Origin: Atopobium sp.
GTDB lineage: Bacteria; Actinomycetota; Coriobacteriia; Coriobacteriales; Atopobiaceae
Length of the DNA stretch: 64,000 nt
NCBI GenBank assembly: GCA_022732885.1
Contig: JAIJTS010000003.1
Coordinates: 44,205-108,204, forward strand
Direction of reading: 5' to 3'
Under the pieces are notes generated by a model, which saw only the letters and a program-made list of their open reading frames with translations, had not been told where the DNA came from and made no database searches. The translations under genes were made by a program, and so were the position numbers. The stretch's first letter is position 1; each line of letters starts with the position of its first letter. Positions 2,404 to 24,162 of this stretch are shown here, one piece after another.

Positions 2404-5400
2404 TTACTCGTCGTCCCCTGCCTCAGCGTCCATGCGAACAACCTGGTTAAGGAGGTCATCCAAAGAGCCAAGGTCCTCATTGATTACATCTGGGCTAACC
2501 TCGTCGGAAGAAGAACCGATGAGTGTCTCAGTGTAATCAGAGTGAGTGGATGGAGCTGCAGAGCCCAGCATCAGTCCGCCATCGCCTTCTGGCGAGAAGA
2601 CCATGTTGAGCAGCTGAGAAAGATCCTCAGAATCTGCCTCATCCTCTTCTGGCTCAAGAATGTAGAGAAGGTTACGAGCCTCAAGACCATCGCGGAGCTC
2701 CTCGATTGCCTTTGCACCAATACCATCGATGCGAAGCAGGTCTTCCTCGGTCTTACCGATAAGATCGCCTACGGTCTCAATGCCAACCTCGCTGAACTTG
2801 TTGGTCCAACGCTGTGACACGCCAAGATCGTCGAAGAGATACAGCTTTGCATCCTCACTTGAAAGCGTACGGCCATTCTTGGAGTAAACGCCACCGTTGT
2901 AATCCTCGTTGACCCAATCAAGCTGCTTAGGAAGCTGCTCCTCAATGTCCTTAAGCTCCACTGGTGCCCAGTCTGGAAGAGACTTAGCAAAAGAAGAGGT
3001 TGGACCATCAATCTTGGTACCGTGATACGTAAGCTCAACATCATTGTATGCGGAAAGACCAGTACCTGCAGGAATCTGCTTACCAACAATGACGTTGGAC
3101 TTGAGGTCAAGCAGGTGGTCAACATCGCCCTCGATAGCTGCAGAAGTAAGAACACCTGCAGTACGGATGAACGATGCGCTAGAGAGCCAAGAATCGATAG
3201 AGCTTGCAACCTTTAGCGTACCAAGAATTGCTGGCTCTGCCTCTGGTGGAGTACCACCAGCAAGAGCAATGTTCTGGACAGTCTCTGCGAATACATAGCG
3301 GTCCACATACTGACCAAGCAGGTACGAAGAGTCACCTGGGTTGGTAACCTGAACGCGGCGAAGCATCTGACGTGCGATAACCTCGATGTGCTTATCGTTG
3401 AGTTCTACACCCTGGGAAGTATAGACGTCCTTAACGGACTCAACGAAGGTGTGCATAGTGGACTCAATGTCGGTGAGTCGACGGAGCATACGGAAGTTGA
3501 CAAAGCCGCGGGTAATCTGGTCGCCAGCACGGACAACTACGCCATCCTCAATGCCAGGCATGAAGCGGACGGATGCAGGTACACGCCACTCCTCGATAAC
3601 ACGGGAAGCATCGTCTGCATCAACAATACGCAGCAGGTACTCGGTGGTCTCTGGGGTAATGTGAAGAACACCAGAAACAGGAGCCAGGTCAGCCTCGCGA
3701 CCAAGAATCTTCTCGTTGACGTTGCCAACAACATCAAACATACGAGCAACGGTAGGAAGACCCTGCGTAATATCGTCTGCGCCTGCAACACCACCAGAGT
3801 GAATGGTACGCATGGTTAACTGAGTACCAGGCTCACCAATGGACTGAGCTGCGATAATACCAACTGCAGTACCAATGTTGACAGGACGACGGGTGGAAAG
3901 ATCCCAGCCGTAGCACTTCTGGCAGACGCCGTACTTAGACTTACAGGTCAGAAGCGCGCGGAGCTGAACCTTAGCAAGGCCATGCTCAACAAGACGCTCA
4001 AGATCCTGCTTGGACTCAACATAGCCACCAGCAGGGATAAGAACCTCACCGGTGTTTGGATCGCATACATCCTCGAGGGTGCAGCGGCCAATCAGGTCAG
4101 TATTAACAGAAGTCTGACCAGGCTTGATCAGAGGATAGGTGACTGCCTCATCAGTACCGCAGTCCTCCTCGCGAACAATGACGTCCTGTGCAACGTCGAC
4201 AAGACGACGAGTCAGGTAACCAGAGTCGGAAGTGTGGGATGCAGTATCTACCAGGCCCTTACGAGCGCCATAGGTAGAAATGAAGTACTCAAGAGGCTCA
4301 AGACCCTCACGGAAGTTTGCCTTAATTGGAAGGTCAATGGTTTCACCGGACATATCCGCCATCAGGCCTCGCATACCAGCAAGCTGGCGAAGCTGTGTCT
4401 TAGAACCACGAGCTCCAGAGTCAGCCATCATGTAAATTGGGTTGTTCTCTGCAAAGCCTGCAAGCATCTCAGAGCCGAGAAGATCGGTGCACTCGGTCCA
4501 TGCGTTAACAACCTCAACGTGACGCTCTCGCTCGGAGAGGAAGCCGTCCTCGTAGTACTCGTTGATCTGATCAACGCGGTCCTGTGCCTCCTGAAGCAGC
4601 TGTGGCTTGTGTGGAGGAATGACAGCGTCCCAAACAGAAACGGTCAGACCAGCAAGGGTTGCATAGTGGAAACCTGTCTTTTTGATGTTGTCCAGAATTG
4701 GCTCAACATCAGCCATTGGATAGCGGTCGCAGCAATCGTTGACCAAAACGCCAATGTCAGACTTAACCATCTTGTAGTTAATGTATGGGTAATCCTCTGG
4801 CAGGCACTGACGGTTGAAGATAATGCGACCAACAGTGGTCTCAAAACGCTTGGTACCCTCAGTAACATCCAGATCCTCATACTGACCGCGGCCAGTCATA
4901 ACGCGGAAGATAGCACGATCGCTATCAGCAACGTTTGCATCCTTGGAGCTTACGCGGACAACAACCTTTGCCTGAAGATCAAGGTCACGGTTGGCCTCAA
5001 TAGCCAGAAGAGCATCCTCAAAGCTTGCAAAGGTAAGAGTCTTAGCGTCTTCACCGGTCTTCTCGGAAGTGAGGTAGTAGACGCCAAAGACCATATCCTG
5101 AGAAGGAACGGTCAAAACCTTACCAGAAGCAGGGCTTCTGAGGTTGTTGCTGGAAAGCATCAGAATGCGAGCCTCTGTCTGTGCCTGAGTAGAAAGCGGC
5201 ACGTGGACAGACATCTGGTCGCCGTCGAAGTCTGCGTTAAATGGTGCGCAGACCAGTGGGTGCAGGTGGATAGCCTTACCCTCGATAAGAACTGGCTCAA
5301 ATGCCTGGATAGACAGACGGTGAAGGGTAGGTGCGCGGTTGAGAAGAACGAGGCGGTCCTGAATAACCTCATCCAGAACGTCCCAAACAACTGGGGTACC

Positions 5401-6831
5401 ACGGTCAATAGCGCGCTTTGCGCCCTTGATATTTTCTACCTTGCGGAGCTCAACCAAACGACGCATGACAAATGGCTTGAAGAGCTCAAGTGCCATAGCA
5501 GATGGAAGACCGCACTGGTGCAGCTTCAGGTGTGGGTCAACAACAATAACGGAACGGCCAGAGTAGTCAACACGCTTACCCAGAAGGTTCTGACGGAAAC
5601 GACCTTGCTTACCCTTAAGAGCCTCAGCAAGAGACTTCAGAGGACGTCCACCACGACCAGTGACGGGACGACCACGGCGACCATTGTCAAACAAAGCGTC
5701 AACGGACTCCTGAAGCATGCGCTTCTCGTTGTTAACAATGATAGAAGGTGCCTCAAGGTCAAGCAGGCGCTTAAGACGATTGTTGCGGTTAATAACACGA
5801 CGATACAAATCGTTTAAGTCGGAAGCTGCAAAACGGCCACCATCAAGCTGAACCATAGGACGAAGATCAGGTGGAATAACTGGTACAACGTCAAGAATCA
5901 TGTTAGCTGGATCGTTGCCACCCTTAAGGAAAGCGTCAACAATCTCAAGGCGTTTAATAGCCTTCTCGCGCTTTTGCTTCTGAGCATCCTCATTGGCGAT
6001 AATAGCGCGGAGCTCCTTGGCCTCTTTCTCAAGGTCAATGTTGGAGAGAAGGTCGCGGACAGCCTCTGCACCCATGCCGCCCTTGAAGTAGATGCCATAG
6101 TAGCGCTTAAGCTCGGAGAACAGACCCTCATCGGAGATGAGCTCTCTAGTCTCAAGCTGCATGAACTTCTCGAAAGCCTCACGACGAAGTGTCTTCTCTT
6201 CCTCGTACTCTTCCTCAAGATCGGCAACGCCTGCGCGAATCTCATCCTCAGAAAGAGGCTCAAAATCGCCAAACTCGTCATCTTGTGGCTGGCCCTGCTC
6301 ACGAAGGCGTGCGATCTGATCGTCACGCTCTGCATCGAGCTCTTCAAGGTCTGCTGCAAGCTCCTCACGAAGATCGTCTACGTCAGCCTCACGTGCCTCA
6401 GTGTCAACACTGGTGATTACGTAAGATGCAAAGTAGAGGACTTTCTCGAGGTCCTTGCTCTTGATATCAAGAAGACGTGCCAGAGGGAAGCTGGTTGGAC
6501 TCTTGAAGTACCAAATGTGGCTTACAGGAGCAGCAAGCTCGATGTGGCCCATGCGGTCACGACGAACCTTTGCGGTGGTTACTTCAACACCGCAGCGCTC
6601 GCAGGTAATGCCCTTGAAGCGAATGCCTTTGTACTTACCGCAGGCGCACTCCCAGTCCCTTACAGGTCCAAAGATCTTCTCGCAGAAAAGGCCGTCCTTT
6701 TCTGGCTTAAGGGTACGGTAGTTGATGGTCTCAGGCTTCTTTACCTCGCCATAGGACCAACCGCGGATATCATCAGCAGACGCTAGAGAAATTTTAATAG
6801 CGTCAAATTCAGTGGAATCGAAATCTGCCAC
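2404..6831 (-). CDS. rpoC: DNA-directed RNA polymerase subunit beta' with C-terminal HhH/acidic extension
   Basis: 1475 aa. N-terminus [68 protein letters not shown] and zinc-finger Cys motif. Conserved NADFDGD. Immediately downstream of rpoB. Confidence 0.97.
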
Positions 6832-6836
6832 AGTCG

Positions 6837-9800
6837 CTACTCCTTATCGGTGGTCGCGTCGCCTACAAGTGCGGATGCACCCTCAGCGTCTTGGGACAGG
6901 TCGGAAGCGGTTACCTCAGTAAAGCCAAGGTCGTTGAGGATCTCAACAGCGTTCTTCTCCTCAGGATCTGTGACCTTTGCGGTATTAGCACGCTTACGAT
7001 AGGAGATTGGCTCAATGTCAAGTGCCAGGGAGCGAATCTCTTTGACCAGAACCTTGAAGGACTCAGGAATTCCTGCAGTAGGAATGTTCTCGCCCTTAAC
7101 AATGGACTCATAGGTCTTAACACGGCCGTTGGTATCGTCAGACTTAACGGTGAGAATCTCCTGGAGGACGTTAGCAGCACCGTATGCATACAGTGCCCAA
7201 ACCTCCATCTCACCAAAGCGCTGACCACCAAACTGTGCCTTACCACCCAGAGGCTGCTGGGTAACAAGAGAGTAAGGACCAGTTGAACGTGCGTGGATCT
7301 TATCGTCAACCATGTGACCGAGCTTCAGGATGTAAGAGACGCCAACGGTAATTGGGCTCTTGAATGCCTCGCCGGTACGACCATCGTAGAGGGTAGTCTT
7401 ACCACGCTCGTTGAGCTGTGGAACAAACTCCTCACGCATGTCCTCGCCGTACTCTTTGAGAGCCTTGTTGATCATGTTGATATTGGTGCGGCGAACAATC
7501 TCTGCAACGGACTCATCAGTAGCACCGTCAAAGAGTGGTGTTGCAACAGGAATTGGGCCTTCAACGTAACGCTTAGAATCTGCGTCATCGTCATCCCAAC
7601 CATGTGCAGCGCCCCAACCAAGGTGGCACTCAAGCAGCTGACCAACGTTCATACGAGAAGGAACGCCCAGTGGGTCGAGAATAACGTCTACTGGGGTACC
7701 GTCTGCCATGTAAGGCATGTCCTCAACAGGGAGAACCTTACAAATAACACCCTTGTTACCGTGACGACCAGCAATCTTATCGCCTTGCTGGATCTTTCTA
7801 CGCTGAGCAACAAAGACGCGGACCAGGTCATTTACTCCTGGAGGCAGGTCGTCTCCAGCCTCACGGCTGAAGCGGACAACGTCAACAACGCGGCCATAGG
7901 AGCCGTGTGGCATCTTAAGGGAAGTATCACGAACGTCGTGTGCCTTAGCACCAAAGATTGCGCGAAGCAGGCGCTCTTCTGCGGTCAGAGCGGTCTCACC
8001 CTTAGGAGTGACCTTACCAACCAGAATATCGCCAGGGCCAACCTCAGCGCCGATGCGGATGATACCGTCATCATCGAGGTTTGCGAGCATGTCCTCACCA
8101 AGGTTAGGAATCTCGCGGGTAATCTCCTCAGCACCAAGCTTGGTGTCACGAGCATCAATCTCGTGACGAGAAATGTTAACGGAGGTCAGAAGGTCTTCCT
8201 GAACAACACGCTCGGAGACGATAATACCGTCCTCGTAGTTGTAGCCTTCCCATGGCATGTAAGCAACGGTAAGGTTTGCACCAAGTGCCAGCTCAGAGTG
8301 ATCGACAGATGGGCCATCTGCGATTGGCTGACCCTTCTCAACCTGCTGTCCAACAGTAACAATTGGACGGTGGTTGATGCAGGTAGACTGGTTAGAGCGC
8401 TCGTACTTAGGAAGATCGTAGCGCTGAGAACCGTGCTCATCGGAGTAGATGACAACGTGAGCTGCGTCTACCTCGGTGACCTCGCCTGCAAACTCTGCGC
8501 AAATAAGCTCGCCAGAGTCCTGAGCTGCGCGGCCCTCCATGCCAGTTCCAACATAAGGAGCGTGGGACTGAATCAGAGGCACTGCCTGACGCTGCATGTT
8601 TGCACCCATGAGGGTACGCTTTGCATCGTCGTGCTCAAGGAATGGAATGAGGTTAGCTGCGACGGAGAGAAGCTGACGTGGAGAAACATCCATGTAGTCA
8701 ACGTCCTCAACAGGAACCTGTGCAGGTGCACCGAAGGAACCGTCGAAGTCGCGAGTACGTGCAATAACACGGTCTGCATTTACAACCTTGCCGTCTGCGT
8801 CAACCTCAACAAACTTCTTAGACTTAGGGTCAATTGGGGTATTAGCAGGAGCAATAATGTGATTCTCCTCCTCGTCTGCAGTCATCCAAACGATGTCGTC
8901 AGAAACAACGCCACCTGTAACCTTACGATAAGGAGCTTCAATAAAGCCGTACTCATTTACGTGAGCATACAGTGCCAAGGAGCCGATAAGACCAATGTTT
9001 GGTCCCTCAGGAGTCTCGATTGGGCACATACGGGAGTAGTGCGAGTTGTGAACGTCGCGGACTGCGGTAGGAACGTTGGTACGACGGCTGGAGCCGGACT
9101 TGTGTCCTGCAAGACCGCCAGGTCCCAGAGCAGAAAGACGACGCTTGTGAGTCAAACCAGCAAGTGGGTTTGCCTGGTCCATGAACTGTGAAAGCTGAGA
9201 AGAACCGAAGAACTCCTTGATTGCAGCAACAATTGGACGGATGTTGATCAGAGACTGTGGAGTGATGTCGTCTGCGTCCTGAGATGCCATGCGCTCACGG
9301 ACAACACGCTCCATACGGCTCATACCAATGCGGAACTGGTTCTGGACCAGCTCACCAACGGTACGAACGCGGCGGTTGCCAAAGTGGTCAATGTCATCAA
9401 GGTGCTTAGACTCATCACCTGCGTGCACTGCAAGAAGATACTTTAGAGCTGCGACGATATCCTCTTTGGTAAGGACACGTACGTCTGCAGGAATCTCTTC
9501 CTCAAGCTTCTTGTTAATCTTGTAACGACCAACGCGAGCAAGGTCATAGCGCTGCTCATTGAAGAAGAGGCCGTCAAGCAGAGAACGGGCAGAGTCAACA
9601 GTTGGTGGCTCGCCTGGACGCTGACGACGATAAATCTCGATAAGAGCATCCTCACGTGTAGTAGCAACATCACGCTCAAGTGTGTTGCGAACAACATCGG
9701 AATCACCAAGGAGCGAGAGAATCTCGTCATCGGTAACAGCGATGCCAAGTGCACGGAGGAAGACAGTAGCGCTCTGGCGACGCTTGCGGTCAATAGAGAC

Positions 9801-11166: not shown

Positions 11167-11547
11167 TTACTTAAGGGTGACGGTAGCGCCAGCCTCCTCG
11201 AGCTGAGCCTTAGCAGCCTCAGCGTCCTCCTTCTTTGCGCCCTCGAGGACAGCCTTAGGAGCACCCTCGACGACCTCCTTTGCCTCCTTGAGGCCAAGGT
11301 TGGTAAGAGCACGGACAACCTTGATGACGCCGATCTTGTTGTCGCCGAAGCCCTCGAGGATAACGTCAAAGTTGGACTTCTCCTCTGCCTCCTCAGCAGC
11401 GCCACCAGCTACAGGAGCAGCAGCAACAGCTACAGGAGCAGCAGCGGAAACGCCGAAGACGTCCTCAAGCTCGTGAACGAGCTCAGAAAGCTCGAGTGCT
11501 GGCATCTCTTTAAGGGCCTCAATGATCTCATCTTTAGTGACAGCCAT
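11167..11547 (-). CDS. rplL: 50S ribosomal protein L7/L12
   Basis: 126 aa. [38 protein letters not shown], Ala/Pro hinge, and C-terminal domain [33 protein letters not shown]. Confidence 0.95.
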
Positions 11548-11679
11548 GTCAATTCTCCTTTTTAAACGATGCAGCCTTTGTACTGCATCTGGGCAAAAGC
11601 CCGGCTTGTATAAGTACGATTGAGTGCATCTACACTCTCACGCGGTTTGCGCCAATGCGCGGGTACAACAAAACGTTGC

Positions 11680-12201
11680 TTATGCAGCGTTCTTCTGATC
11701 TGCGACTGCAGAAAGAGCGGTTGCGAGTCCACGAGCTGGACCAGCGCAAACCTGTGCAATACCGGTAAGTGGGCTTGCAACAACGAAGACAAGCTTTGCA
11801 ATGAGCTCCTCGCGAGAAGGAAGATCTGCGTAAGCCTTTGCCTCGTCAGCGGTAAGTGCCTGACCATCAGCGATACCACCAATGAACTCAACTTTCTTGA
11901 GCTTCTTGGCCTCATCCTTGATGACCTTAGCGGCCTCGACAGGATCGTTCTCATAGAAAACGTATGCGCAGGTACCGGCGAGCATCTCGTCAATCTCTGG
12001 CATACCAGCGTTCTTAAGAGCAATCTTGACGATGTTGTTCTTATAGACCTTCATGTGAGCGCCTGCTGCGGTAAGTGCGCGGCGAAGCTCCTGAGTCTCC
12101 TTTACGGAAAGACCACGATAGTCGATAACAAACAGGCCCTTGGAGTTGTCGAGAGAAGCGGAAACTTTCTCAAGCAAATCAACTTTAGACTGAGCTGGCA
12201 T
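11680..12201 (-). CDS. rplJ: 50S ribosomal protein L10
   Basis: L10-like sequence directly upstream of rplL. ORF begins at 12222, but MPAQSKVDLLEK (ATG at 12201) is the likely start. Confidence 0.9.
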   Translation of the reverse strand: MPAQSKVDLLEKVSASLDNSKGLFVIDYRGLSVKETQELRRALTAAGAHMKVYKNNIVKIALKNAGMPEIDEMLAGTCAYVFYENDPVEAAKVIKDEAKKLKKVEFIGGIADGQALTADEAKAYADLPSREELIAKLVFVVASPLTGIAQVCAGPARGLATALSAVADQKNAA

Positions 12202-12646
12202 GTAGTACACCTCCTTTATCATGTCTCAGGCACGAGCGCCAACAGGTGCGGCCCTCACATGAAAAGACCCCACTTTGGCAACCAAAGCGGGGTCTGGATG
12301 TACTAATCTCAAGACCACCTCGGCAGGCGGGAATTCCCATTAAGCCTTGGATTCAAGGCGCCGGCTGTCTTTGGCAGCGAACGTGCAACTGCAAGACGTC
12401 TGTCTTGCGTGGGATATTGTGCAGCAAAAAACTATTCAAGTCAAGGTTGAGCGCACAATTTCTTTCTCTTCACAAAAATTTGACGAGAAGAGCGGCTGTG
12501 CTGCTATGTACACGCTACAAGCCGTGCGCGCCGAATGTTCACCGCAAGCCGCATGCGCACCATAAGCAGATCAGCGCGGCAAGAAAAATCCGCTACCTGC
12601 AAGCAGATACCGGATTAAACGTGCTAGGTACTTCTAAGCGATTAGC
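12202..12646 (-). promoter_or_regulatory. Long 5' leader of the rplJL operon (candidate L10 autoregulatory leader)
   Basis: 445 nt with no convincing coding sequence between rplA and rplJ. Position matches known L10(L12)4-binding leaders. Structure not verified. Confidence 0.3.
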
Positions 12647-13354
12647 TTAGTCCTCCATGAGGTTACGAACCTTGGTTGGATCAACCTTGATGCCAGGGCC
12701 CATAGTAGAGGAAATAGCAACGGTCTTGACGTACTTACCCTTTGCGCTGGATGGCTTGACGCGGATAATCTCGGAGATCAGTGCGCCATAGTTCTCAACA
12801 AGCTGCTGGACCTCAAAAGAAGCCTTGCCGATTGCAACGTGGCAGATACCAAAACGGTCTGCACGATACTCAACACGACCAGCCTTGAGCTCGTTAACCA
12901 TCTTTGCAACATCCATGGTAACGGTGCCAAGCTTTGGGTTAGGCATAAGACCACGAGGACCAAGAACGCGACCAAGACGGCCAACCTTACCCATCATCTG
13001 AGGGGTTGCGATTGCTGCGTCAAAGTCAAGCATGCCCTTCTCGACCTCAGCGATGAGCTCGTCGCCACCGACGATGTCAGCGCCAGCTGCCTCAGCCTCG
13101 CGGGCCTTCTCGCCCTCTGCAAAGACTGCAACGCGAACGGACTTACCAGTGCCGTGAGGCAAAGAGATAGAACCGCGAACGTTCTGGTCAGCCTTACGAG
13201 TATCAACACCAAGGCGAATTGCTACCTCAATAGTCTCGTCAAACTTAGCAGTTGCAAGCTCCTTAGTAAGGGTTACTGCCTCTTTTGGGCTGTAGAGATT
13301 TGCACCATCTACCTTGGCAACTGCATTCTTGTAGTTCTTTCCGTGCTTAGGCAT
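12647..13354 (-). CDS. rplA: 50S ribosomal protein L1
   Basis: ORF reaches 13393 but [16 protein letters not shown] (ATG at 13354) is the canonical L1 N-terminus. Conserved [17 protein letters not shown]. Confidence 0.93.
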
Positions 13355-13465
13355 TATGTACCTCCTGTGGTTAGCGGGCGTCCGCCCTCCCACTCCTGCA
13401 TCTTCCGCCTATAGTTACGCCCTCTTGGCAAGAAACCCAACTACGTGCACAAGCGTCGGATGCTC

Positions 13466-13502
13466 TGACAAAACAACCGTCAGCCACGCAAATGGCTGAC
13501 GG
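13466..13502 (-). terminator. Hairpin plus U-tract between rplK and rplA (terminator/attenuator; L1 leader region)
   Basis: Inverted repeat ccgtcagcca/tggctgacgg (10 bp) followed on the minus strand by UUGUUUUGUC. Lies between the rplK stop and rplA start. Confidence 0.5.
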
Positions 13503-13511
13503 GAGTAAACA

Positions 13512-13940
13512 CTACTCGGCGATGGTTACACCCATGGAACGAGCGGTACCAGCGACGATCTTCTTTGCAGCCTCAATGTCGTTTGCGTTGAGGTCAGGCA
13601 TCTTGATCTCAGCGATCTTGGTGAGCTGCTCCTGAGAGAGCTGGCCAACCTTATCGCGCTGAGGAACACCAGAACCGCCCTTGAGGTGAAGCTCCTTCTT
13701 AATGAGCTGAGCTGCTGGAGGAGTCTTGGTTACGAAGTCAAAGGAGCGATCCTCGTAAACAGAAATCTCGACTGGGATGATATCGCCAGCCTTGTCCTGA
13801 GTTGCAGCGTTGAATGCCTGGCAGAACTGCATAATGTTGACCTGTGCAGCACCCAGAGCTGGTCCTACTGGAGGAGCTGGGTTTGCCTGGCCTGCAGGAA
13901 TCTGCAGCTTAATAAAGTTAACAACCTTCTTAGCGGGCAT
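13512..13940 (-). CDS. rplK: 50S ribosomal protein L11
   Basis: 142 aa. [30 protein letters not shown], canonical L11. Confidence 0.95.
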
Positions 13941-14036
13941 GTTAAGCCTCCTGTTTGAATACGTTTAAGTCTATTCTCGCGCACTCCCGAGAAGCAATCC
14001 ACAAGGGACGAGAAGTGCGGGATAAGCCGTTAGTTA

Positions 14037-14582
14037 CTAGTCTATCAGGGAAATCTGATCCATGGTGAGCTCAACCGGAGTCTCGCGACCAAAGATGGTA
14101 AGCATGACCTTGATCTTGCCGGACTCTGCGTTGACCTCAGAAACAGTTCCGTCAAAGTCAGCGAGAGGACCAGAAAGAACGTGAATTGCCTGACCGACCT
14201 CAATATTGGTTGCTGTACGCTTAGGTACAGGGCTACCCGTCTTCATACCGCCACGACGCATAATCTTATCGAACTCATCGCGACGCAGAGGAACTGGCTT
14301 GCCGTCAATGCCAACAAAACCAGTTACGCCTGGAGTGTTGCGAACAACAGCCCAGGTATTATCATCCAGCTCCATGCGAACAAGAACATAACCTGGGAAG
14401 ACCTTAGACTCTTTGGTCTCACGCTTACCGCCGTCCTTGACCTCAGTAACTTCCTCAGTAGGAATCTGAATATCAACAACAGCACGCTCAAGGCCATAGG
14501 TCTCAATACGGTGCTCAAGGTCAGTTTTTACCTTGTTCTCATAACCTGAATAGGTGTGAACTACATACCAGCGCTTAGCCAT
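14037..14582 (-). CDS. nusG: Transcription termination/antitermination factor NusG
   Basis: 181 aa. WYVVHTYSGYENKV with KOW-region motif. Sits between secE and rplK as is conserved. Confidence 0.93.
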   Translation of the reverse strand: MAKRWYVVHTYSGYENKVKTDLEHRIETYGLERAVVDIQIPTEEVTEVKDGGKRETKESKVFPGYVLVRMELDDNTWAVVRNTPGVTGFVGIDGKPVPLRRDEFDKIMRRGGMKTGSPVPKRTATNIEVGQAIHVLSGPLADFDGTVSEVNAESGKIKVMLTIFGRETPVELTMDQISLID

Positions 14583-14585
14583 TGA

Positions 14586-14948
14586 TTATCCCCTCAGTCC
14601 AGTAAAGGCGACGAGACCAGCAACAATGCCAGTATCAACCAGCCAAGTTACCAAGCCAAAGAAAATGATTGTTGCAATTACGGCCACAGAGAAACCAGCA
14701 AGCTCAGAGCTTGAAGGCCACACAACGCGGTGCATTTCTGTACGAACGCCTGCAAAATAAGCACCCAGGCGACCAAAGAAGCCAGGGTTAGCGTTACGCT
14801 GAAGGGACTTCTCCTGCTTCTTTGCCTCAGCCTTAGCGGCCTTAGCAGAAGTTTCAGGAGTAGCTTCAGCCTGAAGGGCCTCACGCTGGGCACGCTCTTC
14901 TGCGCGAGCCTTACGTACGCTCCTCTTATTGCGCTCCTTATTTGCCAT
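14586..14948 (-). CDS. secE: Preprotein translocase subunit SecE (long basic N-terminus, actinobacterial type)
   Basis: 120 aa with a single C-terminal TM helix (AVIATIIFFGLVTWLVD). Lies immediately upstream of nusG. Confidence 0.85.
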   Translation of the reverse strand: MANKERNKRSVRKARAEERAQREALQAEATPETSAKAAKAEAKKQEKSLQRNANPGFFGRLGAYFAGVRTEMHRVVWPSSSELAGFSVAVIATIIFFGLVTWLVDTGIVAGLVAFTGLRG

Positions 14949-15019
14949 CCTACGCTCCCTTGGATGTCATACTTACATACAAACCGGCCAACCCTTATGG
15001 GAAGGCCGGTGAAGTTATC

Positions 15020-15095
15020 TGGCAGGCCAGGAAGGACTCGAACCCTCAACAAACGGTTTTGGAGACCGCCGCTCTACCATTGGAGCTACTGGCCT
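15020..15095 (-). tRNA. tRNA-Trp (anticodon CCA)
   Basis: Minus strand reads aggccagtagctccaatggtagagcggcggtctCCAaaaccg...ggttcgagtccttcctggcctgcca. Good cloverleaf with encoded CCA. Conserved position upstream of rpmG-secE-nusG. Confidence 0.9.
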
Positions 15096-15113
15096 AGAAC
15101 GAACCCACCAAGC

Positions 15114-15263
15114 CTAGCGGGTCTCGCGATGTACCGTGTGCTTGTGGCACCATGGGCAGTACTTTTTCAACTCCATACGATCTGGGTTGTTGGACTTATT
15201 CTTGTCCGTAGTGTAATTACGACGCTTGCACTCAGTGCAGGCGAGAGTAACGAGTGTACGCAT
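15114..15263 (-). CDS. rpmG: 50S ribosomal protein L33 (zinc-ribbon type)
   Basis: Below the 60-aa ORF-track cutoff. Minus-strand translation: [49 protein letters not shown]. Confidence 0.85.
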
Positions 15264-15387
15264 TGATCCTCCTGAACACGGTCACGAGATGTATTCTCGA
15301 AATGTGACGCGGTTGCTTAGATTAGCACCCAATACCCAGAGATGTCAATACTTTTCTCTGATTACTCTAGGCGTTCACATATTTTTT

Positions 15388-15421
15388 GACAAAAAACCCG
15401 GCGCGCAAAAAGCACGCCGGG
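15388..15421 (-). terminator. Rho-independent terminator after tuf
   Basis: Hairpin cccggcgtgc...gcgcgccggg (9/10 bp) followed on the minus strand by UUUUUUGUC. Lies 24 nt past the tuf stop. Confidence 0.6.
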
Positions 15422-15444
15422 CAACTTAGCAACTTTAAAAGAAG

Positions 15445-16650
15445 TTACTCGATGACGGTGGAAACACGACCATCGCCGACAGTGTGGCCACCCTCGCGGA
15501 TAGCGAACTTCAGACCCTGCTCAAGAGCAATTGGGTGAATGAGCTCGCAGCCAACGGTGATGTGGTCACCAGGCATAGCCATCTCTACCTTGCCACCGTT
15601 TGCATCGGTGAGCTCGTAGATGTCGCCGGTTACGTCAGTTGTACGGAAGTAGAACTGTGGACGGTAACCAGAGAAGAATGGGGTGTGACGGCCGCCCTCT
15701 TCCTTAGTAAGAACGTAAACCTCACCGGTGAACTTCTTGTGTGGAGTAACGGTACCAGGCTTGCAGAGAACCTGACCGCGCTCGATGTCCTCGCGCTTAA
15801 CGCCACGAAGAAGAATACCAACGTTGTCGCCAGCCTCGCAGAAGTCCATGGTCTTACGGAACATCTCAATGCCGGTAGCAACAGAGCTCTGGGTTGGCTT
15901 AATACCAACGATCTCGACTGGATCGTTGAGCTTGAGCTCACCACGCTCAACACGGCCGGTAGCAACGGTACCACGACCAGAAATGGTCATGACGTCCTCG
16001 ATTGCCATCAGGAATGGCTTCTCGTTGTCACGAGCTGGTGTTGGGATGTAGGAGTCAACAGTGTGCATGAGCTCACGGATGGACTCAACCCACTTCTCCT
16101 CGCCGTTAAGAGCGCCGAGAGCGGAACCACGGATGATTGGAAGGTCATCACCTGGGAAGTCGTACTCGGAGAGAAGGTCACGGGTCTCCATCTCGACGAG
16201 GTCGATGAGCTCGTCATCGTCGACCATATCGCACTTGTTCAGGAAGACAACGATGTAAGGAACGCCGACCTGACGTGCAAGAAGAATGTGCTCACGAGTC
16301 TGAGCCATAGGACCGTCGGTTGCAGCAATAACGAGGATTGCGCCGTCCATCTGAGCTGCACCAGAAATCATGTTCTTGATGTAGTCTGCGTGGCCAGGGC
16401 AGTCGACGTGAGCATAGTGGCGCTCCCAAGTCTCGTACTCAACGTGAGCAACGGAAATGGTAATACCACGCTGACGCTCCTCTGGAGCCTTATCGATGTT
16501 CTCGAAGGCGGTATAGTCTGCCTTGCAGCCCTCGGTCTCAGAGAGAACCTTGGTGATTGCTGCGGTAAGGGTAGTCTTACCGTGGTCGACGTGACCAATA
16601 GTACCGATGTTTACATGTGGCTTTGTGCGGTCAAACTTTTCCTTGGCCAT
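15445..16650 (-). CDS. tuf: Elongation factor Tu
   Basis: [28 protein letters not shown]... ATG at 16650 is preceded by GAAGGAGGA; the ORF-track start at 16656 is TTG. Confidence 0.97.
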
Positions 16651-16757
16651 TGCCAATCCTCCTTCTGGAACTAACCCTCGGGCTAGACCGTGGTGAAAAA
16701 ACGTCTGTTTATACTCAACGGCGCAAATGTCTTAGACATGTACGCCGCAAAGAGTCT

Positions 16758-19219: not shown

Positions 19220-20701
19220 TTAGTCTGCCTTACGCTTAAGTCGAGCGCCAGCGGCGGTATCTTCAATCAAAAGTCCAAGCCCAGCAATGCCGTCTCTAAT
19301 TTGATCGGCAACTGCCCAGTTCTTCTGGGAACGAGCCTCTTGTCGAGCAGCAAGCAAAGCCTCTGCAGCCTCATCGGCTGACGTGCCCTCATAACCTGCT
19401 ACCTGGGATGCAAGCGTTACAAGCTCCTCTGGTAAATCAGAGGTAGACGCTGCCTGAGTCAAATCGATTCCCAAAGCTCCTGTGAGCTCACACAACATAT
19501 CTGATGCACGGAGAACAGGACTTGCGCCAACGTTCTGGCCAACCTCTGCAAGATAGGTATTTGCAGCAGTTACCAGCGCAAAGATAGCAGCAAGTGCTCC
19601 TGCAGTATTGAAATCATCATCCATCTGAGCGTCAAACTCGCTCTGGGCTGTGTTAATTGCCTCAGCAAGCGTACGATCAGCATCGGAAAGTTCATGCTGA
19701 GCAGACGACTGCTTGTAAGCCCAGCGGAGATTTGCAACGCAGGTCTTCATACGCTCAAGCGTGCCAACAGTTCCTTCAAGACGCTCAAATGAGAAATCAA
19801 GTGGTGCACGATAGTGCGTCTGAAGCATCAAAAGTCTTACTGCATCTGCAGGGTACTTGTCCAAAACTTCCTTGAGTGTGTAGAAGTTGCCCAAAGACTT
19901 GGACATCTTCTCGCCATCAACGCGAAGCATTCCAGTATGCATCCAATAATTGGCGAGAGGAGCGTGCCAAGCACAAGATGCCTGCGCGGTCTCGTTCTCA
20001 TGGTGAGGGAATACCAGGTCAGAACCACCACCGTGAATGTCAATTGGAGTGCCCAGGTAGCGATGAATCATGGCGCAGCACTCACTGTGCCAACCTGGAC
20101 GACCTTCTCCCCAAGGGCTTGGCCAGCTAGGCTCACCAGGCTTTGCCGCCTTCCAGAGTGCAAAGTCAAATGGATCGCGTTTCTCGTCATTAACCTCAAC
20201 GCGCTCACCTGCGCGGAGCTGATCAAGGTCTCGGCCAGAAAGCACGCCATAGCCGTGGTCAGAACGAACCGAGAAGTACACGTCGCCCGAAGGCACCGCG
20301 TAAGCGTGACCCTGTTCAATCAAAGATTGAATCATCTGGAGCATGGCTTCAATCTCGTGCGTTGCGCGAGGACGAATATCAGGGTCCAGTATATTGAAAC
20401 GGTGCATCTGCTCGATAAACGCTTGAGAAAACTCTTCAGAAACCTCTTGAGCAGTCCTTCCCTGCTCAATGGCACGCTGAATAATCTTGTCGTCAACGTC
20501 AGTCAGGTTCTGAGCAAAAGTGACCTCATAACCTTTGTGCATCAGATAACGTCGAATAACGTCAAACGAGAGGAAGGTACGGGCGTTTCCGATGTGAATC
20601 TGATCGTAAACCGTAGGACCACACACGTACATGCGGATTTTGCCCTCGTCGATTGGCTTTAACTCTTCTTTTTTATGCGTCTGAGTGTTATAGACAAGCA
20701 T
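19220..20701 (-). CDS. cysS: Cysteine--tRNA ligase
   Basis: HIGN (HIGH-type) motif in MYVCGPTVYDQIHIGNARTF, KMSKS present (GEKMSKSLGN). ORF reaches 20818, but the ATG at 20701 (MLVYNTQTHKKEEL) is the likely start. Confidence 0.93.
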   Translation of the reverse strand: MLVYNTQTHKKEELKPIDEGKIRMYVCGPTVYDQIHIGNARTFLSFDVIRRYLMHKGYEVTFAQNLTDVDDKIIQRAIEQGRTAQEVSEEFSQAFIEQMHRFNILDPDIRPRATHEIEAMLQMIQSLIEQGHAYAVPSGDVYFSVRSDHGYGVLSGRDLDQLRAGERVEVNDEKRDPFDFALWKAAKPGEPSWPSPWGEGRPGWHSECCAMIHRYLGTPIDIHGGGSDLVFPHHENETAQASCAWHAPLANYWMHTGMLRVDGEKMSKSLGNFYTLKEVLDKYPADAVRLLMLQTHYRAPLDFSFERLEGTVGTLERMKTCVANLRWAYKQSSAQHELSDADRTLAEAINTAQSEFDAQMDDDFNTAGALAAIFALVTAANTYLAEVGQNVGASPVLRASDMLCELTGALGIDLTQAASTSDLPEELVTLASQVAGYEGTSADEAAEALLAARQEARSQKNWAVADQIRDGIAGLGLLIEDTAAGARLKRKAD

Positions 20702-21059
20702 ACATACTCCTCGCAACCATTGTGTATTGGTGTAAGTATAAACGGTTTGTGGAAAACCTTTTAGTTCCATACATAGCACAGAAAAAATAAATTGTGTCGT
20801 ATGGGCTTTGTCACACACTCAATTTTTCATTATATCACTCGAATATTTCAAAAATCGAACTTTCGGTGAATTATAATATTTTTAATTTAATATTTTATGT
20901 TTATTATAAGAATATAACCTATTTAACTGGTTGTTTAAAAATATCTACTTTTCTATCTACTACCATTCATCGAAAAAAGGTTTTTCTCTTATTAAAGCTT
21001 CTACAATATTCACAACGTGTTAGCTAGCACAAATTACAACAACTTGTAAGGAGACAGCT

Positions 21060-21152
21060 ATGAAATGGATTATCAAACCATCAAAGCAGGCTACAACAAT
21101 TACCGGCTGTGTTATTTTCATCAACATTTGTGGAGCAAGATTCAACGTTTAA
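21060..21152 (+). CDS. Candidate RiPP precursor peptide (30 aa, 2 Cys): MKWIIKPSKQATTITGCVIFINICGARFNV
   Basis: Below the ORF-track cutoff. AGGAG at 21049-21053 sits 6-7 nt upstream of the ATG. Same strand as the radical-SAM/SPASM gene, 51 nt upstream of it. Low GC like the rest of the island. Confidence 0.5.
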   Translation: MKWIIKPSKQATTITGCVIFINICGARFNV

Positions 21153-21203
21153 TCTAATTGCTGCTGGAGAGATTTTCTCTCCAGCAGCTAGAATCGCAGG
21201 TGA

Positions 21204-22529
21204 ATGGATATGGCTAACAGATATAACTCCTTTAAATTTTCAAAATACAATTCCTTCGTTGAACATGATGATAATTTATATATCTACAATTCATTCACTG
21301 GTGGATTGTTAGAAGTTGACAAAACTTTGAAAGATTATTTCAAAGCAAAAAAATTCGACAATCAATTATCAAGTTCGATTAAAGCGTTATCCGACGAAAC
21401 ATCGGATAATCTACTGTCAGGCGGAATTCTAGTAGACAGCTCTATTGACGAAACAGAAGCACTTATCTGTTCATCCCAAATACATCGATTTGCAACAGAT
21501 AATCTAACTTTAACAATTGCTCCTACCACTTATTGTAACTTTAGGTGTCCTTACTGTTTTGAAAATATTAGAAATCAAACATCAATGTCAGAAGAAACGA
21601 TTGCCCAAATACCTCGATTTATTAAAAGTAACTTCCCTGATTTGAAGGCACTTCAAATTGTTTGGTATGGTGGAGAACCACTACTCGAGTTAGATAAAAT
21701 TTCATTATTGACCAGCAAGCTAATAAATAATGATTATTACTTGCAACCAGCTTCAATAGTAACGAATGGATATCTGCTAAATGAACAAATTGCACACAAA
21801 CTTGTTGACCTAGGTATTAACAACGCTCAAGTCACAATTGACGGTTCAAGAAATGATCATAATTTACGCAGAATTCCAGCGAATGGCTCACCAACTTTTG
21901 ACCGTATACTTAAAAATATTCAGTCTTGTTCTAATTTGCTCAACATTACAATTAGAATCAATGCCGATAAGACTAATGTTAAGCATGCGGATGAGTTATT
22001 GGAAGACCTTGAAAAAGCTGGTTTAAAAGATGTCGTTTCAATAAGTTTATCGCCAGTAACTGATTACACTGAAAAGAATAATGATTTGGGAGTATGTTTT
22101 TCATCTTCCCAATTTGCTGATGAAGAGTACATCTTCTATAAAAAGGCGGTACAAAAAGGATTTGATGTCGTAGGTAGTCTATTGCGTCAAAGGCAAATTT
22201 GTGGAGCAATTTCCTACAACTCTTATGTAATTGACCCTCATGGTGATCTTTATAAATGTTGGGATTCAATAGGAAATATAGATGAGAAAGTGGGAACCAT
22301 CTATGATTCCATACAGCTAAATACCAATCTTTGCAAATGGCTTACATACAATCCGTATAAGAAAAATTGTATTAACTGTAAAGTCCTTCCCATGTGTAAT
22401 GGTGGTTGCCCAAATCAATTCATCCAAACGGGAAGACTTGGGTGTTGTAGTAGTTTTTATAATCTCAACAAAAAACTAGAGTTGATTTCCTATGTGCTTA
22501 ATAATAATGAAGGTGATTCGAATGAGTAA
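21204..22529 (+). CDS. Radical SAM / SPASM-domain peptide-modifying enzyme (sactipeptide/ranthipeptide-maturase-like, anSME superfamily)
   Basis: 441 aa. CNFRCPYC (CxxxCxxC) after a ~115-aa N-terminal extension (YIYNSFTGGLLEVD, RRE-like). WYGGEPLL glycine-rich SAM motif. C-terminal SPASM Cys cluster (CGAISYNSYVIDPHGDLYKCWD...CINCKVLPMCNGGCPNQ). Confidence 0.85.
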   Translation: MDMANRYNSFKFSKYNSFVEHDDNLYIYNSFTGGLLEVDKTLKDYFKAKKFDNQLSSSIKALSDETSDNLLSGGILVDSSIDETEALICSSQIHRFATDNLTLTIAPTTYCNFRCPYCFENIRNQTSMSEETIAQIPRFIKSNFPDLKALQIVWYGGEPLLELDKISLLTSKLINNDYYLQPASIVTNGYLLNEQIAHKLVDLGINNAQVTIDGSRNDHNLRRIPANGSPTFDRILKNIQSCSNLLNITIRINADKTNVKHADELLEDLEKAGLKDVVSISLSPVTDYTEKNNDLGVCFSSSQFADEEYIFYKKAVQKGFDVVGSLLRQRQICGAISYNSYVIDPHGDLYKCWDSIGNIDEKVGTIYDSIQLNTNLCKWLTYNPYKKNCINCKVLPMCNGGCPNQFIQTGRLGCCSSFYNLNKKLELISYVLNNNEGDSNE

Positions 22530-24162
22530 GTTTTTTAACATTATCCGCTACTGTATATCTACCATTCTGGATAAGGGCAGTCTTGCGATTTTTCTCTTTC
22601 TGTCATTCTTTGTCACAGCGCTTATGGTGATCCAACCGCTTCTTGTTGGATTTGTAATTAATCTTTTTATTTCAGGAACAACTTGGAGCGAGATACTTTT
22701 CTATTGCGCCATAGTTGCCGCACTAGGAATCCTCATTGCCGGCTGCTCCTATCTTGCTAAAACACGGTATTGTCAGTTACAGGTTGATTCTGCGTTTACT
22801 ATTGAGCGACAGCTGATTGACAAGATTCAACATGCAGATTCATCGTTTTTCTCGTCATATGATTCTGGTCATTATCGTCAGACAGTAAATAATGATGCTA
22901 ATGACGTTTCGATTTTTATACTTACACAATGTATGAGCTTTGTAACAACTATGGTCTCTGTCTTAGGCACACTGGCAATTATTTTATATCTGAACCCATT
23001 AACCGCTCTTGTAACAGTTGTTCTGTTGTTGGTGAGTTTTATTATCTATAAGCAAATCCAAGCTGCGGCCTATAAAAGATACAGAGAATCCAAAGAACTA
23101 AGATCTCAATATGGATCTATTGAGCTTTCCCAATTCACAGACGTAGATTTTATCAGGCGTCATTCTCTCTTTGAGCGTTTCTTTAATCAGCACTATGCCG
23201 TCAATCAAAAACTTCGTAGTGCCATTCATGAGCAGTACAAACTGGAATTTGGTGTACAGGAATTAAACAATGCTGTAATTGCCGTATTCCAAGCCATTGT
23301 CTTTATTACCTGTGCATATCAAATTTTCCTTGGAGCACTCCAGCCTGGCTATATTGCAACCATTTCAAGCTATTTTGTATCGCTCTTAGGTTCTATTACG
23401 CTTCTTATGGAATTTGGCATGGCTTATCAGAGTATTACGGTAAGTCTTAATCGAATTGAGCAGATTCTTGATTTACCTCAAGAGTCCGTTGGTAACATCA
23501 TTCCATCAGAGAACGTCAATCAAATTACCTGCACAAATGTATCTTTCTCTTATCCGCATACAAATAAAGTACTGATGAACAACTTGTCTTGCAGTTTTGC
23601 AAAAGGAAATATATACGCCATTACCGGTGGAAACGGTACCGGCAAATCAACATTTCTGAAACTCATTAACGGAGAGTGGTCTTCTCACCTATCGGGCACT
23701 ATTACTATTAACGAGGACTTACTAGCTCAAATTAATCAGTATGAACTCCGAAAAAATACTCTTGGATTTACCGAACAAGAGCCAAGCATTGTTGACGATA
23801 CAGTAAGAAATAATCTGACCCTACTCTGCAAAAAGCAACCAACAGATGAAGAGATAATCAACTATATCAAGCTGTTCAATCTGGAAAAATTGCTGCTTGG
23901 AGACGATCAAAATCTTGACGTTCGCCTGGGTGAACGAAGCTCTGCTATCTCTGGTGGAGAAAAGCAAAAGATTGCAATTATCCGCATGATGCTTATGAAT
24001 CCAAGTGTTATGTTGCTTGACGAGCCAACTTCTGCATTAGATCAAAAAAGTGTTGATATCCTTCTTAATCTTCTCAAGAAGGTCAAGCAGGACCACATCA
24101 TACTTCTCATATCTCATGACCCTAAAGTGGTGGAAGCAGCCGACCATATCGTAGAGCTGTAA
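22522..24162 (+). CDS. ABC transporter, fused permease/ATP-binding protein (type I exporter, no C39 peptidase domain)
   Basis: Six N-terminal TM helices, then NBD with Walker A GGNGTGKST, signature LSGGEKQKIAI, Walker B LLDEPTSALD. ATG at 22522 with GAAGGTGA RBS overlaps the rSAM stop by 8 nt. The ORF track gives upstream in-frame starts at 22492 and 22507. Confidence 0.85.
   Translation: MSKFFNIIRYCISTILDKGSLAIFLFLSFFVTALMVIQPLLVGFVINLFISGTTWSEILFYCAIVAALGILIAGCSYLAKTRYCQLQVDSAFTIERQLIDKIQHADSSFFSSYDSGHYRQTVNNDANDVSIFILTQCMSFVTTMVSVLGTLAIILYLNPLTALVTVVLLLVSFIIYKQIQAAAYKRYRESKELRSQYGSIELSQFTDVDFIRRHSLFERFFNQHYAVNQKLRSAIHEQYKLEFGVQELNNAVIAVFQAIVFITCAYQIFLGALQPGYIATISSYFVSLLGSITLLMEFGMAYQSITVSLNRIEQILDLPQESVGNIIPSENVNQITCTNVSFSYPHTNKVLMNNLSCSFAKGNIYAITGGNGTGKSTFLKLINGEWSSHLSGTITINEDLLAQINQYELRKNTLGFTEQEPSIVDDTVRNNLTLLCKKQPTDEEIINYIKLFNLEKLLLGDDQNLDVRLGERSSAISGGEKQKIAIIRMMLMNPSVMLLDEPTSALDQKSVDILLNLLKKVKQDHIILLISHDPKVVEAADHIVEL

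Follow-up and report, generated by a model that had tools for sequence, protein, structure and literature searches.

A conserved 30-codon open reading frame beside a radical SAM/SPASM enzyme gene of Atopobium sp. is the probable precursor gene of a minimal three-gene RiPP cassette

A 64,000-nt stretch of DNA from Atopobium sp. (contig JAIJTS010000003.1 of assembly GCA_022732885.1, positions 44,205 to 108,204 of the forward strand), referred to here as the window, contains a 30-codon open reading frame (ORF) on its forward strand at positions 21060 to 21152. Judged by comparison with homologous loci, this ORF is a real, conserved gene. We read it as the precursor gene of a minimal three-gene cassette for a peptide that is synthesized ribosomally and then modified post-translationally (RiPP), comprising the precursor, a radical S-adenosylmethionine (SAM)/SPASM maturase and an ATP-binding cassette (ABC) exporter, and assign this reading a probability of roughly 80%. 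The peptide is very probably the substrate of the adjacent enzyme, and we favour, with less assurance, a product that carries one or more Cys-derived thioethers. The system is an uncharacterised member of the radical SAM/SPASM Cys-peptide RiPPs that lies outside every curated family.

The ORF starts with the ATG at 21060 and ends with a TAA whose last nucleotide is 21152, encoding the 30-residue peptide MKWIIKPSKQATTITGCVIFINICGARFNV with Cys residues at positions 17 and 24, seven residues apart. The Shine-Dalgarno (SD) sequence AAGGAG (21048 to 21053, the AGGAG occupying 21049 to 21053) precedes the ATG with a 6-nt spacer, and GGAG is present at the identical distance from the ATG in every homologous locus. 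No in-frame start lies further upstream. A preliminary description, made from the letters of the window, had reported a 30-codon ORF with AGGAG before its ATG and Cys17 and Cys24, and its coordinates proved exact. It had also placed the ORF 51 nt before a co-oriented radical SAM ORF, which is correct for the first ATG of that ORF at 21204; the gap becomes 57 nt if translation starts at 21210, and the gap in homologous locus L009 is equal. The two ORFs share a strand and a reading frame, and three stops interrupt in-frame read-through from the precursor into the enzyme. The exact 30-residue sequence has already been called by bulk gene callers, so that the ORF is unannotated, as had been claimed, only in the sense of carrying no name; its Bacillus and Enterococcus relatives are labelled 'Protein of unknown function' or 'hypothetical protein' in public records.

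The AGGAG had been described as a strong ribosome binding site. The motif is present, but on its own it is not above chance: 20 AGGAG-N5-9-ATG sites occur in the window, and about six of them head ORFs of 25 to 39 codons that are not genes, so that an AGGAG followed by 30 codons does not by itself exceed expectation. A 77-codon ORF at 20794 to 21027 is also spurious and was rejected as a gene, since its relatives carry 1- and 2-nt indels. These cases speak for the alternative that the ORF arose by chance in intergenic DNA rich in AT and that its AGGAG is fortuitous. The 21060 ORF is lifted above chance because its frame and protein are conserved and because its N-terminal motif is shared by a wider family. 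Moreover, changes accumulate more quickly in its 3' part than in the non-coding DNA that flanks it, yet the frame, both Cys residues, G25 and R27 persist, which is unlike neutral DNA. The chance explanation is thus effectively refuted.

Conservation was assessed with a set of close loci (L001 and others), a second allele (L009, L010 and L027, the last of these contigs being a repeat of the second allele) and a locus from another species (L011). Near-identical DNA was found in Atopobium sp. metagenome-assembled genomes. The frame was intact and both Cys residues were fixed in five close loci, with two synonymous (ATC>ATT, CCA>CCG) and two amino-acid changes (A11T, G16S) in the leader part. The L009 locus, whose maturase is 73% identical, encodes MKWIVKPTKQVTTLGYCGIRIDICGARHNV, which a gene caller had already called. 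The other-species locus encodes MEWVVRPNRKARFYTARCGIKITICGQRVIM next to a maturase with 45% identity, likewise in a cysS/ispF context. Across these three lineages, in which the maturases range from 100 to 45% identity, residues M1, W3, P7, C17, I23, C24, G25 and R27 are invariant. The precursor frame is the sole frame open in all three, the other frames being broken by stops; an overlapping +3-frame ORF (21065 to 21157) and an antisense ORF (21020 to 21145) were rejected on account of stops in L010. A degenerate DNA pattern (SD, M[KE]W[IV][IV][KR]P, a gap, then ICGxR) occurred at five places in the metagenome collection. All five had a hairpin 3' of the peptide ORF, and the four with sufficient downstream sequence had an SD and ATG that match the 5' end of the maturase gene. 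The preliminary description had named lack of conservation among homologous loci as the observation that would speak against its ORF; what we found is an ORF kept as a protein beside maturases that are 98%, 73% and 45% identical.

The first 16 codons (21060 to 21107) form the leader part, which opens with M-K-W-I-I-K-P, and codons 17 to 30 (21108 to 21149) form the core part; the boundary between the two is putative. We fetched loci with enzymes 37–45% identical to that of the window from Lysinibacillus, the Bacillus cereus group, Enterococcus and metagenomes. Each of the 10 distinct loci contained one to four short Cys-containing ORFs with a strong SD that start with M-x-W-[IVLY]-[IVN]-x-(P). 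The first Cys follows 1–12 residues past the motif (8–11 in most cases), and is part of a Cys-rich core unlike that of Atopobium; MNWVIEPEAGPATMCNNCFFYAHGGCTSKCSLQECTIRF and MNWINKPEQGIEPNFICWFFDCFDKLCGVKVCNDKCTNYNCIIFFG are examples. Across the whole family the cores contain 2–7 Cys each, and Cys is the only feature common to all of them. Within the six frames of the window the strict motif MxW[IV][IVN]xP had one match, the precursor ORF. Such a constant, recognition-type start ahead of cores that vary is a classical pattern. The earlier proposals that the ORF encodes the precursor of the adjacent maturase, and that it consists of a leader and a core, are thus both supported: the former by protein-level conservation and by the family motif beside homologous enzymes in 10 of 10 loci, the latter by an MxWΦΦxP start shared with peptides that adjoin 37–43% identical maturases and have unrelated cores, together with the hypervariable core described below. 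From these alignments we conclude that the peptide has a leader–core architecture.

The peptides themselves are poorly covered by existing resources. An exhaustive phmmer search of a representative protein library with the 30-residue peptide returned one true relative, P0122, such a library being unsuited to charting peptides this short. P0121 and P0123 were rejected as relatives because they are spurious repeat translations; both are long 'proteins' of tandem repeats (~28 and ~75 residues) that look like translated repetitive DNA. Pfam gave nothing for the family peptides beyond one chance match, and NCBIfam gave no match to the longer Cys-rich relatives. No ORF with the motif was found on the contigs for P0006 (L028, L029) and Muribaculum (L008), which are too short to judge. 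Literature searches on Clo7bot, on OhkG/FlmE, on the N-terminal strings of the peptides and on Atopobium with radical SAM and RiPP returned nothing relevant, and two RiPP papers that we checked do not mention these families.

Several of the family loci have features of their own. Multiple MxW-leader genes for Cys-rich peptides lie in Lysinibacillus (L015/L016, 2643–2783 on the minus strand and 6106–6460), in the Bacillus cereus group (L021, 3602–3766 on the minus strand and 7080–7598) and in Enterococcus (L020, 3137–3238 and 3575–3718, both on the minus strand). Some of these are divergent from the maturase gene and some lie behind the exporter gene, and public records either list them as 'hypothetical' or of 'unknown function' or do not call them. 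In L012–L014 and L017–L019 the precursor and maturase genes are separated by extra genes for an ABC ATPase and two ~265-residue, immunity-like membrane proteins, preceded in L017–L019 by an HTH_26 regulator and a ~190-residue membrane protein. The L012–L014 cluster adjoins a conjugation coupling-protein gene (TraG/TrwB domains).

The spacer that separates the precursor gene from the maturase gene contains a hairpin with a perfect 13-bp stem and a 3-nt loop (21160 to 21188, + strand; ΔG −27.8 kcal/mol, z −5.4). The hairpin begins 7 nt past the precursor stop codon and finishes 21 nt ahead of the maturase start. Such a stable structure in this position, together with the shared frame of the short ORF and the maturase ORF, raises the possibility that the short ORF is a regulatory upstream ORF, whose translation would act with the hairpin to control maturase expression, the true substrate being encoded elsewhere. 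This is improbable for several reasons. The amino-acid sequence is conserved, not position alone, and the L011 hairpin, also of 13 bp and between the same two genes but unrelated in sequence, lies 46 nt past the stop codon. Family ORFs are found upstream of the enzyme gene, downstream of it behind the exporter gene, or divergent on the opposite strand, and thus are not position-bound upstream ORFs; an ORF acting in cis could not be placed divergently, past the exporter gene or ahead of three other genes. A motif scan also found no other candidate substrate in the island described below or in the window.

The hairpin probably serves either as a partial terminator or to stabilise the precursor mRNA. 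The second allele has the same stem with another loop. Promoter and terminator scanning called no intrinsic terminator at the hairpin, and a search of the intergenic region with Rfam gave only a chance match to a microRNA hairpin on the opposite strand. A promoter-like match inside the hairpin (21165 to 21194) was dropped, since the other allele does not conserve it. A 14-bp near-palindrome, GTGTTAGCTAGCAC (21017 to 21030), lies ~30 nt before the ribosome binding site, downstream of the putative promoter region, and is perfect in the second allele (GTGTTAGCTAACAC in L010 and L027) though the surrounding DNA is only ~75% identical; it is missing from L011. This palindrome could be an operator, i.e. 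a site for a regulator encoded elsewhere.

The core part of the window peptide can be written as two heptads, C-V-I-F-I-N-I and C-G-A-R-F-N-V. Over the alleles the heptads take the form C-x-x-x-x-[N/D/T]-[I] and C-G-x-R-x-[N/I]-[V/M], in which Cys17, I23, Cys24, G25 and R27 are fixed and the remaining positions are hypervariable. Among the close loci, 10 of 42 nucleotide columns vary in the core compared to 27 of 416 around it (p = 8e-4), and the core codon variants include eight non-synonymous and one synonymous. Between the window and L001 the core differs at 7 of 42 nt (5 residues), the maturase gene at 6 of 1326 nt (1 residue; p = 2e-8 for core versus maturase gene), and neither the leader (0/48 nt) nor the hairpin spacer (0/54 nt) differs at all. 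As the core outpaces adjoining non-coding DNA while the frame, the Cys residues, Gly and Arg are kept, its variation points to diversifying selection or allele shuffling and not to decay. The comparison also implies that one enzyme serves several cores.

The variation in the core also bears on the possibility, raised in the preliminary description, that the ORF encodes a small membrane protein, and more generally a membrane, toxin or immunity peptide that merely adjoins the radical SAM gene. The second half of the window allele is hydrophobic (CVIFINICGA), as would be expected of such a peptide, but the run of ~10 residues is too short for a membrane span, and R, K or D interrupts it in other alleles (CGIRIDICG, CGIKITICG). 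In addition, the peptide co-occurs with the maturase clade in every locus checked, and its leader resembles a catalogued family of radical SAM target peptides. We regard this explanation as very unlikely.

The putative maturase is encoded at 21204 to 22529 (+ strand). Translation more likely starts at 21210 than at 21204, the start taken in the preliminary description, because the SD sequence AGGTGA (21198 to 21203) is then 6 nt away and the product has 439 residues, like its homologue P0002. A Radical_SAM domain was detected, with a CX3CX2C motif at residues 111 to 118 (C111, C115 and C118). Seven further Cys residues are arranged as in a SPASM domain (C333-x13-G-x4-C352, C389xxC392x5C398x3C402 and C414), and both the CX3CX2C and the full SPASM motif are invariant among 106 homologues. 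An AlphaFold model built from this 106-sequence alignment had a predicted local distance difference test score of 91.5. In the model, residues 10 to 95 form a β-β-β(-β)-α-α-α arrangement at high confidence. RiPP leader-recognition (RRE) domains have this layout of three or four strands and then three helices, and the maturase is predicted from the model to have an N-terminal domain that is RRE-like and leader-binding. Pfam searches with the N-terminal part and with the C-terminal part of the enzyme, each taken alone, gave no match, so that neither an RRE nor a SPASM call is available at the sequence level.

The best sequence match to the enzyme in the PDB was the thioether synthase CteB (E 2e-19, ~21% identity), and Foldseek aligned the whole model to CteB (446–458 columns, template modelling score ~0.7), including the N-terminal domain; CteB has an RRE. 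The next fold matches were TigE, anSME and SuiB, and ChlB was also listed. The top family models were Clo7bot (270.4 bits), TIGR04463 (262.1), CefB (220.7), FlmE/OhkG (190), geopeptide (164) and PapB (124.3), all six of them Cys-peptide or thioether-type maturases. Ten homologues of the maturase likewise score below every curated cut-off (TIGR04463 scores of 271–318 bits). Because the window enzyme and these ten homologues all fall under the cut-offs, the clade is, on these scores, a sister of those families and is represented by no curated model.

That position outside all curated families leaves room for a peptide that is a substrate of the enzyme but acquires something other than a Cys thioether, such as a carbon-carbon or ether cross-link, an epimerised residue or oxidised Cys, with the Cys residues serving as a disulfide or as metal ligands. 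SPASM enzymes of similar fold and other chemistry (anSME, SuiB, TigE and ChlB) are indeed among the fold matches, and the core holds R27 as well as aromatics (F/Y) at positions 20 and 28. However, the aromatic positions are not conserved (F/Y/R/K at position 20 and F/Y/H/V at position 28), whereas Cys is what all family cores share, and the six best family models and the best structure all point to Cys-peptide or thioether chemistry. We therefore consider a different modification to be a minor possibility, and retain thioether formation as the favoured one. A hint at ranthipeptide chemistry is that residue 22 is N, D or T across the alleles, as in ranthipeptides the established acceptors are these three (PMC8326336). 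A specific pattern, in which Cys17 is linked to residue 22 and Cys24 to a residue between 27 and 29, is offered tentatively.

Clo7bot (TIGR04333/TIGR04334) is one of the nearest catalogued systems, with short Cys peptides beside a ~440-residue radical SAM/SPASM enzyme. Residues 1–10 of the window peptide match positions 1–10 of TIGR04333 weakly (E 0.11), residues 1–19 of the L009 peptide match positions 1–18 (E 3e-4), and TIGR04334 is the best-scoring maturase model over its full length. However, the peptides reach 12.4 bits (window) and 20.6 bits (L009) against a cut-off of 31, the enzyme 270.4 bits against 600, and the precursor here is a single copy with only two Cys rather than a tandem array. 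The hosts presumably also differ, an Atopobium-like actinobacterium here and Clostridium for Clo7bot. We know of no experimental characterisation of Clo7bot. TIGR04463 and CefB (NF038107) were the next-best full-length matches, TIGR04463 being the best for most homologues of the window enzyme. Some relatives' peptides resemble those of CefB in having Cys at every fifth residue, e.g. CWFFDCFDKLCGVKVC from Lysinibacillus. All 11 enzymes tested nevertheless fall below the respective cut-offs of 525 and 600 bits, and the Cys spacing here is seven rather than five.

CteB, of the CteA-CteB (SCIFF/thermocellin) system, is the closest solved structure both by sequence and by full-length fold. A Cys32-Thr37 link, a C-x4-T spacing, has been reported for CteA (PMC8326336). 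The same C-x4-T is present in the L011 allele, and the window peptide has C-x4-N twice. The systems differ in that the enzymes are ~21% identical, the SCIFF maturase model (TIGR03974) gives 79 bits against a 425-bit cut-off, the peptide here has 2 Cys in 30 residues compared to 6 in ~45, and the leaders are unrelated. The β-thioether ranthipeptides freyrasin (PapA-PapB) and NxxcA-NxxcB consist of repeated short units of Cys and acceptor, with Asp or Asn as acceptors (PMC8326336). In the 30-residue alleles residue 22 is N or D, and N29 has the same spacing from Cys24. The spacing is C-x4-[N/D/T], however, not C-x3-D or N-x-x-C, and the PapB model (NF047865) scores 124.3 bits, under its cut-off of 340. 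NxxC clusters are under shp/rgg quorum sensing, whereas no regulator is present at the locus here.

The gene order resembles that of sactipeptide operons such as sboA-albA (subtilosin), where the gene for a small precursor comes immediately before one for a radical SAM/SPASM enzyme and exporter genes come next. Such operons also feature a stem-loop between the first two genes. Sactipeptide thioethers join the Cys sulfur to the α carbon of the acceptor residue, ranthipeptide thioethers to another of its carbons. Unlike sactipeptides, the enzyme had no sactisynthase model among its 25 best family matches, and a 14-residue core leaves little room for the hairpin layout with N-terminal donors and C-terminal acceptors.

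Taken together with the predicted structure, these comparisons suggest the following course of events. The strong SD would direct translation of the 30-residue peptide, whose N-terminal MKWIIKP would dock, in the form of a strand, on the maturase's RRE-like N-terminal domain. The radical SAM cluster would then cleave SAM, and the resulting 5'-deoxyadenosyl radical would take a hydrogen from an acceptor residue of the core. A Cys thiol at an auxiliary Fe-S cluster of the SPASM domain could close an intramolecular thioether. With two Cys residues, up to two short, non-nested, ranthipeptide-like rings may form, from Cys17 to residue 22 (N/D/T) and from Cys24 to a residue between 27 and 29. The product would be exported by the translationally coupled ABC transporter, and the leader, if removed, would be cleaved by a protease encoded elsewhere. 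The 13-bp hairpin probably makes precursor mRNA exceed enzyme mRNA.

The upstream non-coding DNA, the precursor gene and the maturase gene together form an allelic block (20760 to 22550). Nucleotide identity between the window and L009 is 59–84% (sliding) within it and 87–99% outside ~20760 to ~22550. The encoded proteins follow this division, with identities of 98.9% for CysS, 97.5% for IspF, 97.4% for IspD and 96.5% for the ABC exporter, versus 72.9% for the maturase and 67% for the peptide. By these identities, the promoter–precursor–maturase module exists as at least two divergent alleles in one species-level background, with the exporter in common. This arrangement is reminiscent of pherotype loci: staphylococcal agr and pneumococcal comCD and blp are specificity-group loci, and share with the block described here a sharply bounded combination of peptide and processing-enzyme genes with divergent alleles in near-identical genomes. 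Unlike those loci, the block contains no receptor or regulator gene.

A second, finer mosaic was observed in the comparison of window positions 21204 to 24162 with L001 positions 4001 to 6960. The two differ at 0–4 nt per 300 in the maturase gene, at 10–17 per 300 in the exporter gene and at 11–39 per 300 in the housekeeping flank. This pattern suggests, from nucleotide divergence, a recent exchange of the maturase segment between strains.

The cassette occupies a 3.4-kb low-GC island (20760 to 24162, + strand; ~36% GC compared to 51–53% in the flanks) between cysS and ispF, both on the minus strand. The island is at the same cysS/ispF site in L009 (1110 to 4546) and in L011 (2400 to 5944). 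In all three lineages, even where the maturase is no more than 45% identical, it has 36–38% GC while the genome around it has ~52%. It is either an old acquisition that has not adapted to the composition of its host, or the same site has been hit repeatedly. The third gene (22522 to 24162, + strand) encodes a 546-residue ABC exporter with fused permease and ATPase. Its likely start is the ATG at 22522 with the SD sequence AAGGTGA, the longest ORF beginning at 22492, and from this start the gene has an 8-nt overlap with the end of the maturase gene. Domain searches of the exporter returned ABC_membrane and ABC_tran alone, and not the N-terminal C39 peptidase domain known from bacteriocin exporters; its matches to models of peptidase-containing exporters begin at model position 118–153 or later. 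The peptide has no GG-type cleavage motif, and the cassette is thus not of the double-glycine/peptidase-exporter type.

The surroundings of the island were also inspected. cysS likely starts at the ATG at 20701 (493 residues, AGGAG upstream) rather than at the GTG at 20818. Upstream of cysS, at the beginning of the divergent block, there is an imperfect 15-nt inverted repeat (20783 to 20827, 80% complementary, arms separated by 15 nt), and Rfam gave no family for this region. Further away, 11500 to 16700 on the minus strand contains AGGAG-led genes whose products start like ribosomal proteins L33, L11, L1, L10 and L7/L12 and like EF-Tu, and the window is therefore ordinary core chromosome around the island.

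Several points weigh against the assignment of the ORF as the precursor gene of a thioether-forming cassette, or against parts of it. Neither the peptide nor the enzyme reaches the cut-off of any curated family, so that the proposed chemistry is an extrapolation from relatives as distant as CteB (21% identity). L011 has Ile in place of N29, the second putative acceptor, and support for the two-heptad ring model is therefore not uniform. The cassette contains no protease, immunity gene or regulator. No site of sigma-70 type was detected ahead of the ORF when promoters were scanned for, and the hairpin, whose role is a guess, is not followed by a T-run. The association of motif and enzyme comes from 10 hand-inspected loci and not from a systematic census. 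Finally, the whole case is built on sequence comparison and predicted structure, from which we infer that the leader docks, that thioethers form and where the rings lie, as well as export, what the hairpin does and the biological function.

Since the core varies between strains and the block exists in divergent alleles, we consider a bacteriocin or signal that discriminates between strains to be the most likely product. The hypervariable core beside a near-identical enzyme, and the bounded allelic block, point to selection on effects upon other strains. One can speculate further, with little confidence, that the MxWΦΦxP peptides and their maturases constitute a widespread undescribed RiPP family of Firmicutes and Coriobacteriia. 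The Atopobium branch would be its minimal form, with a ~14-residue product of two Cys heptads and possibly a new ring pattern or linkage, and its alleles would be kept for strain-level recognition or killing in the oral community as a RiPP counterpart of pherotype loci.

For specialists, one more precursor of this kind is routine; it is the shared motif, the hypervariable core and the allelic block that make it a reasonably attractive experimental target. The motif MxW[IV][IVN]xP provides a handle for finding precursor genes that are usually missed beside this generically named radical SAM/SPASM clade. An enzyme that tolerates many cores, as suggested here, would be useful for peptide engineering. 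If our reading is correct, an under-studied human oral bacterium uses three genes to make and export a very small cross-linked peptide, which would be an easy target for heterologous production.

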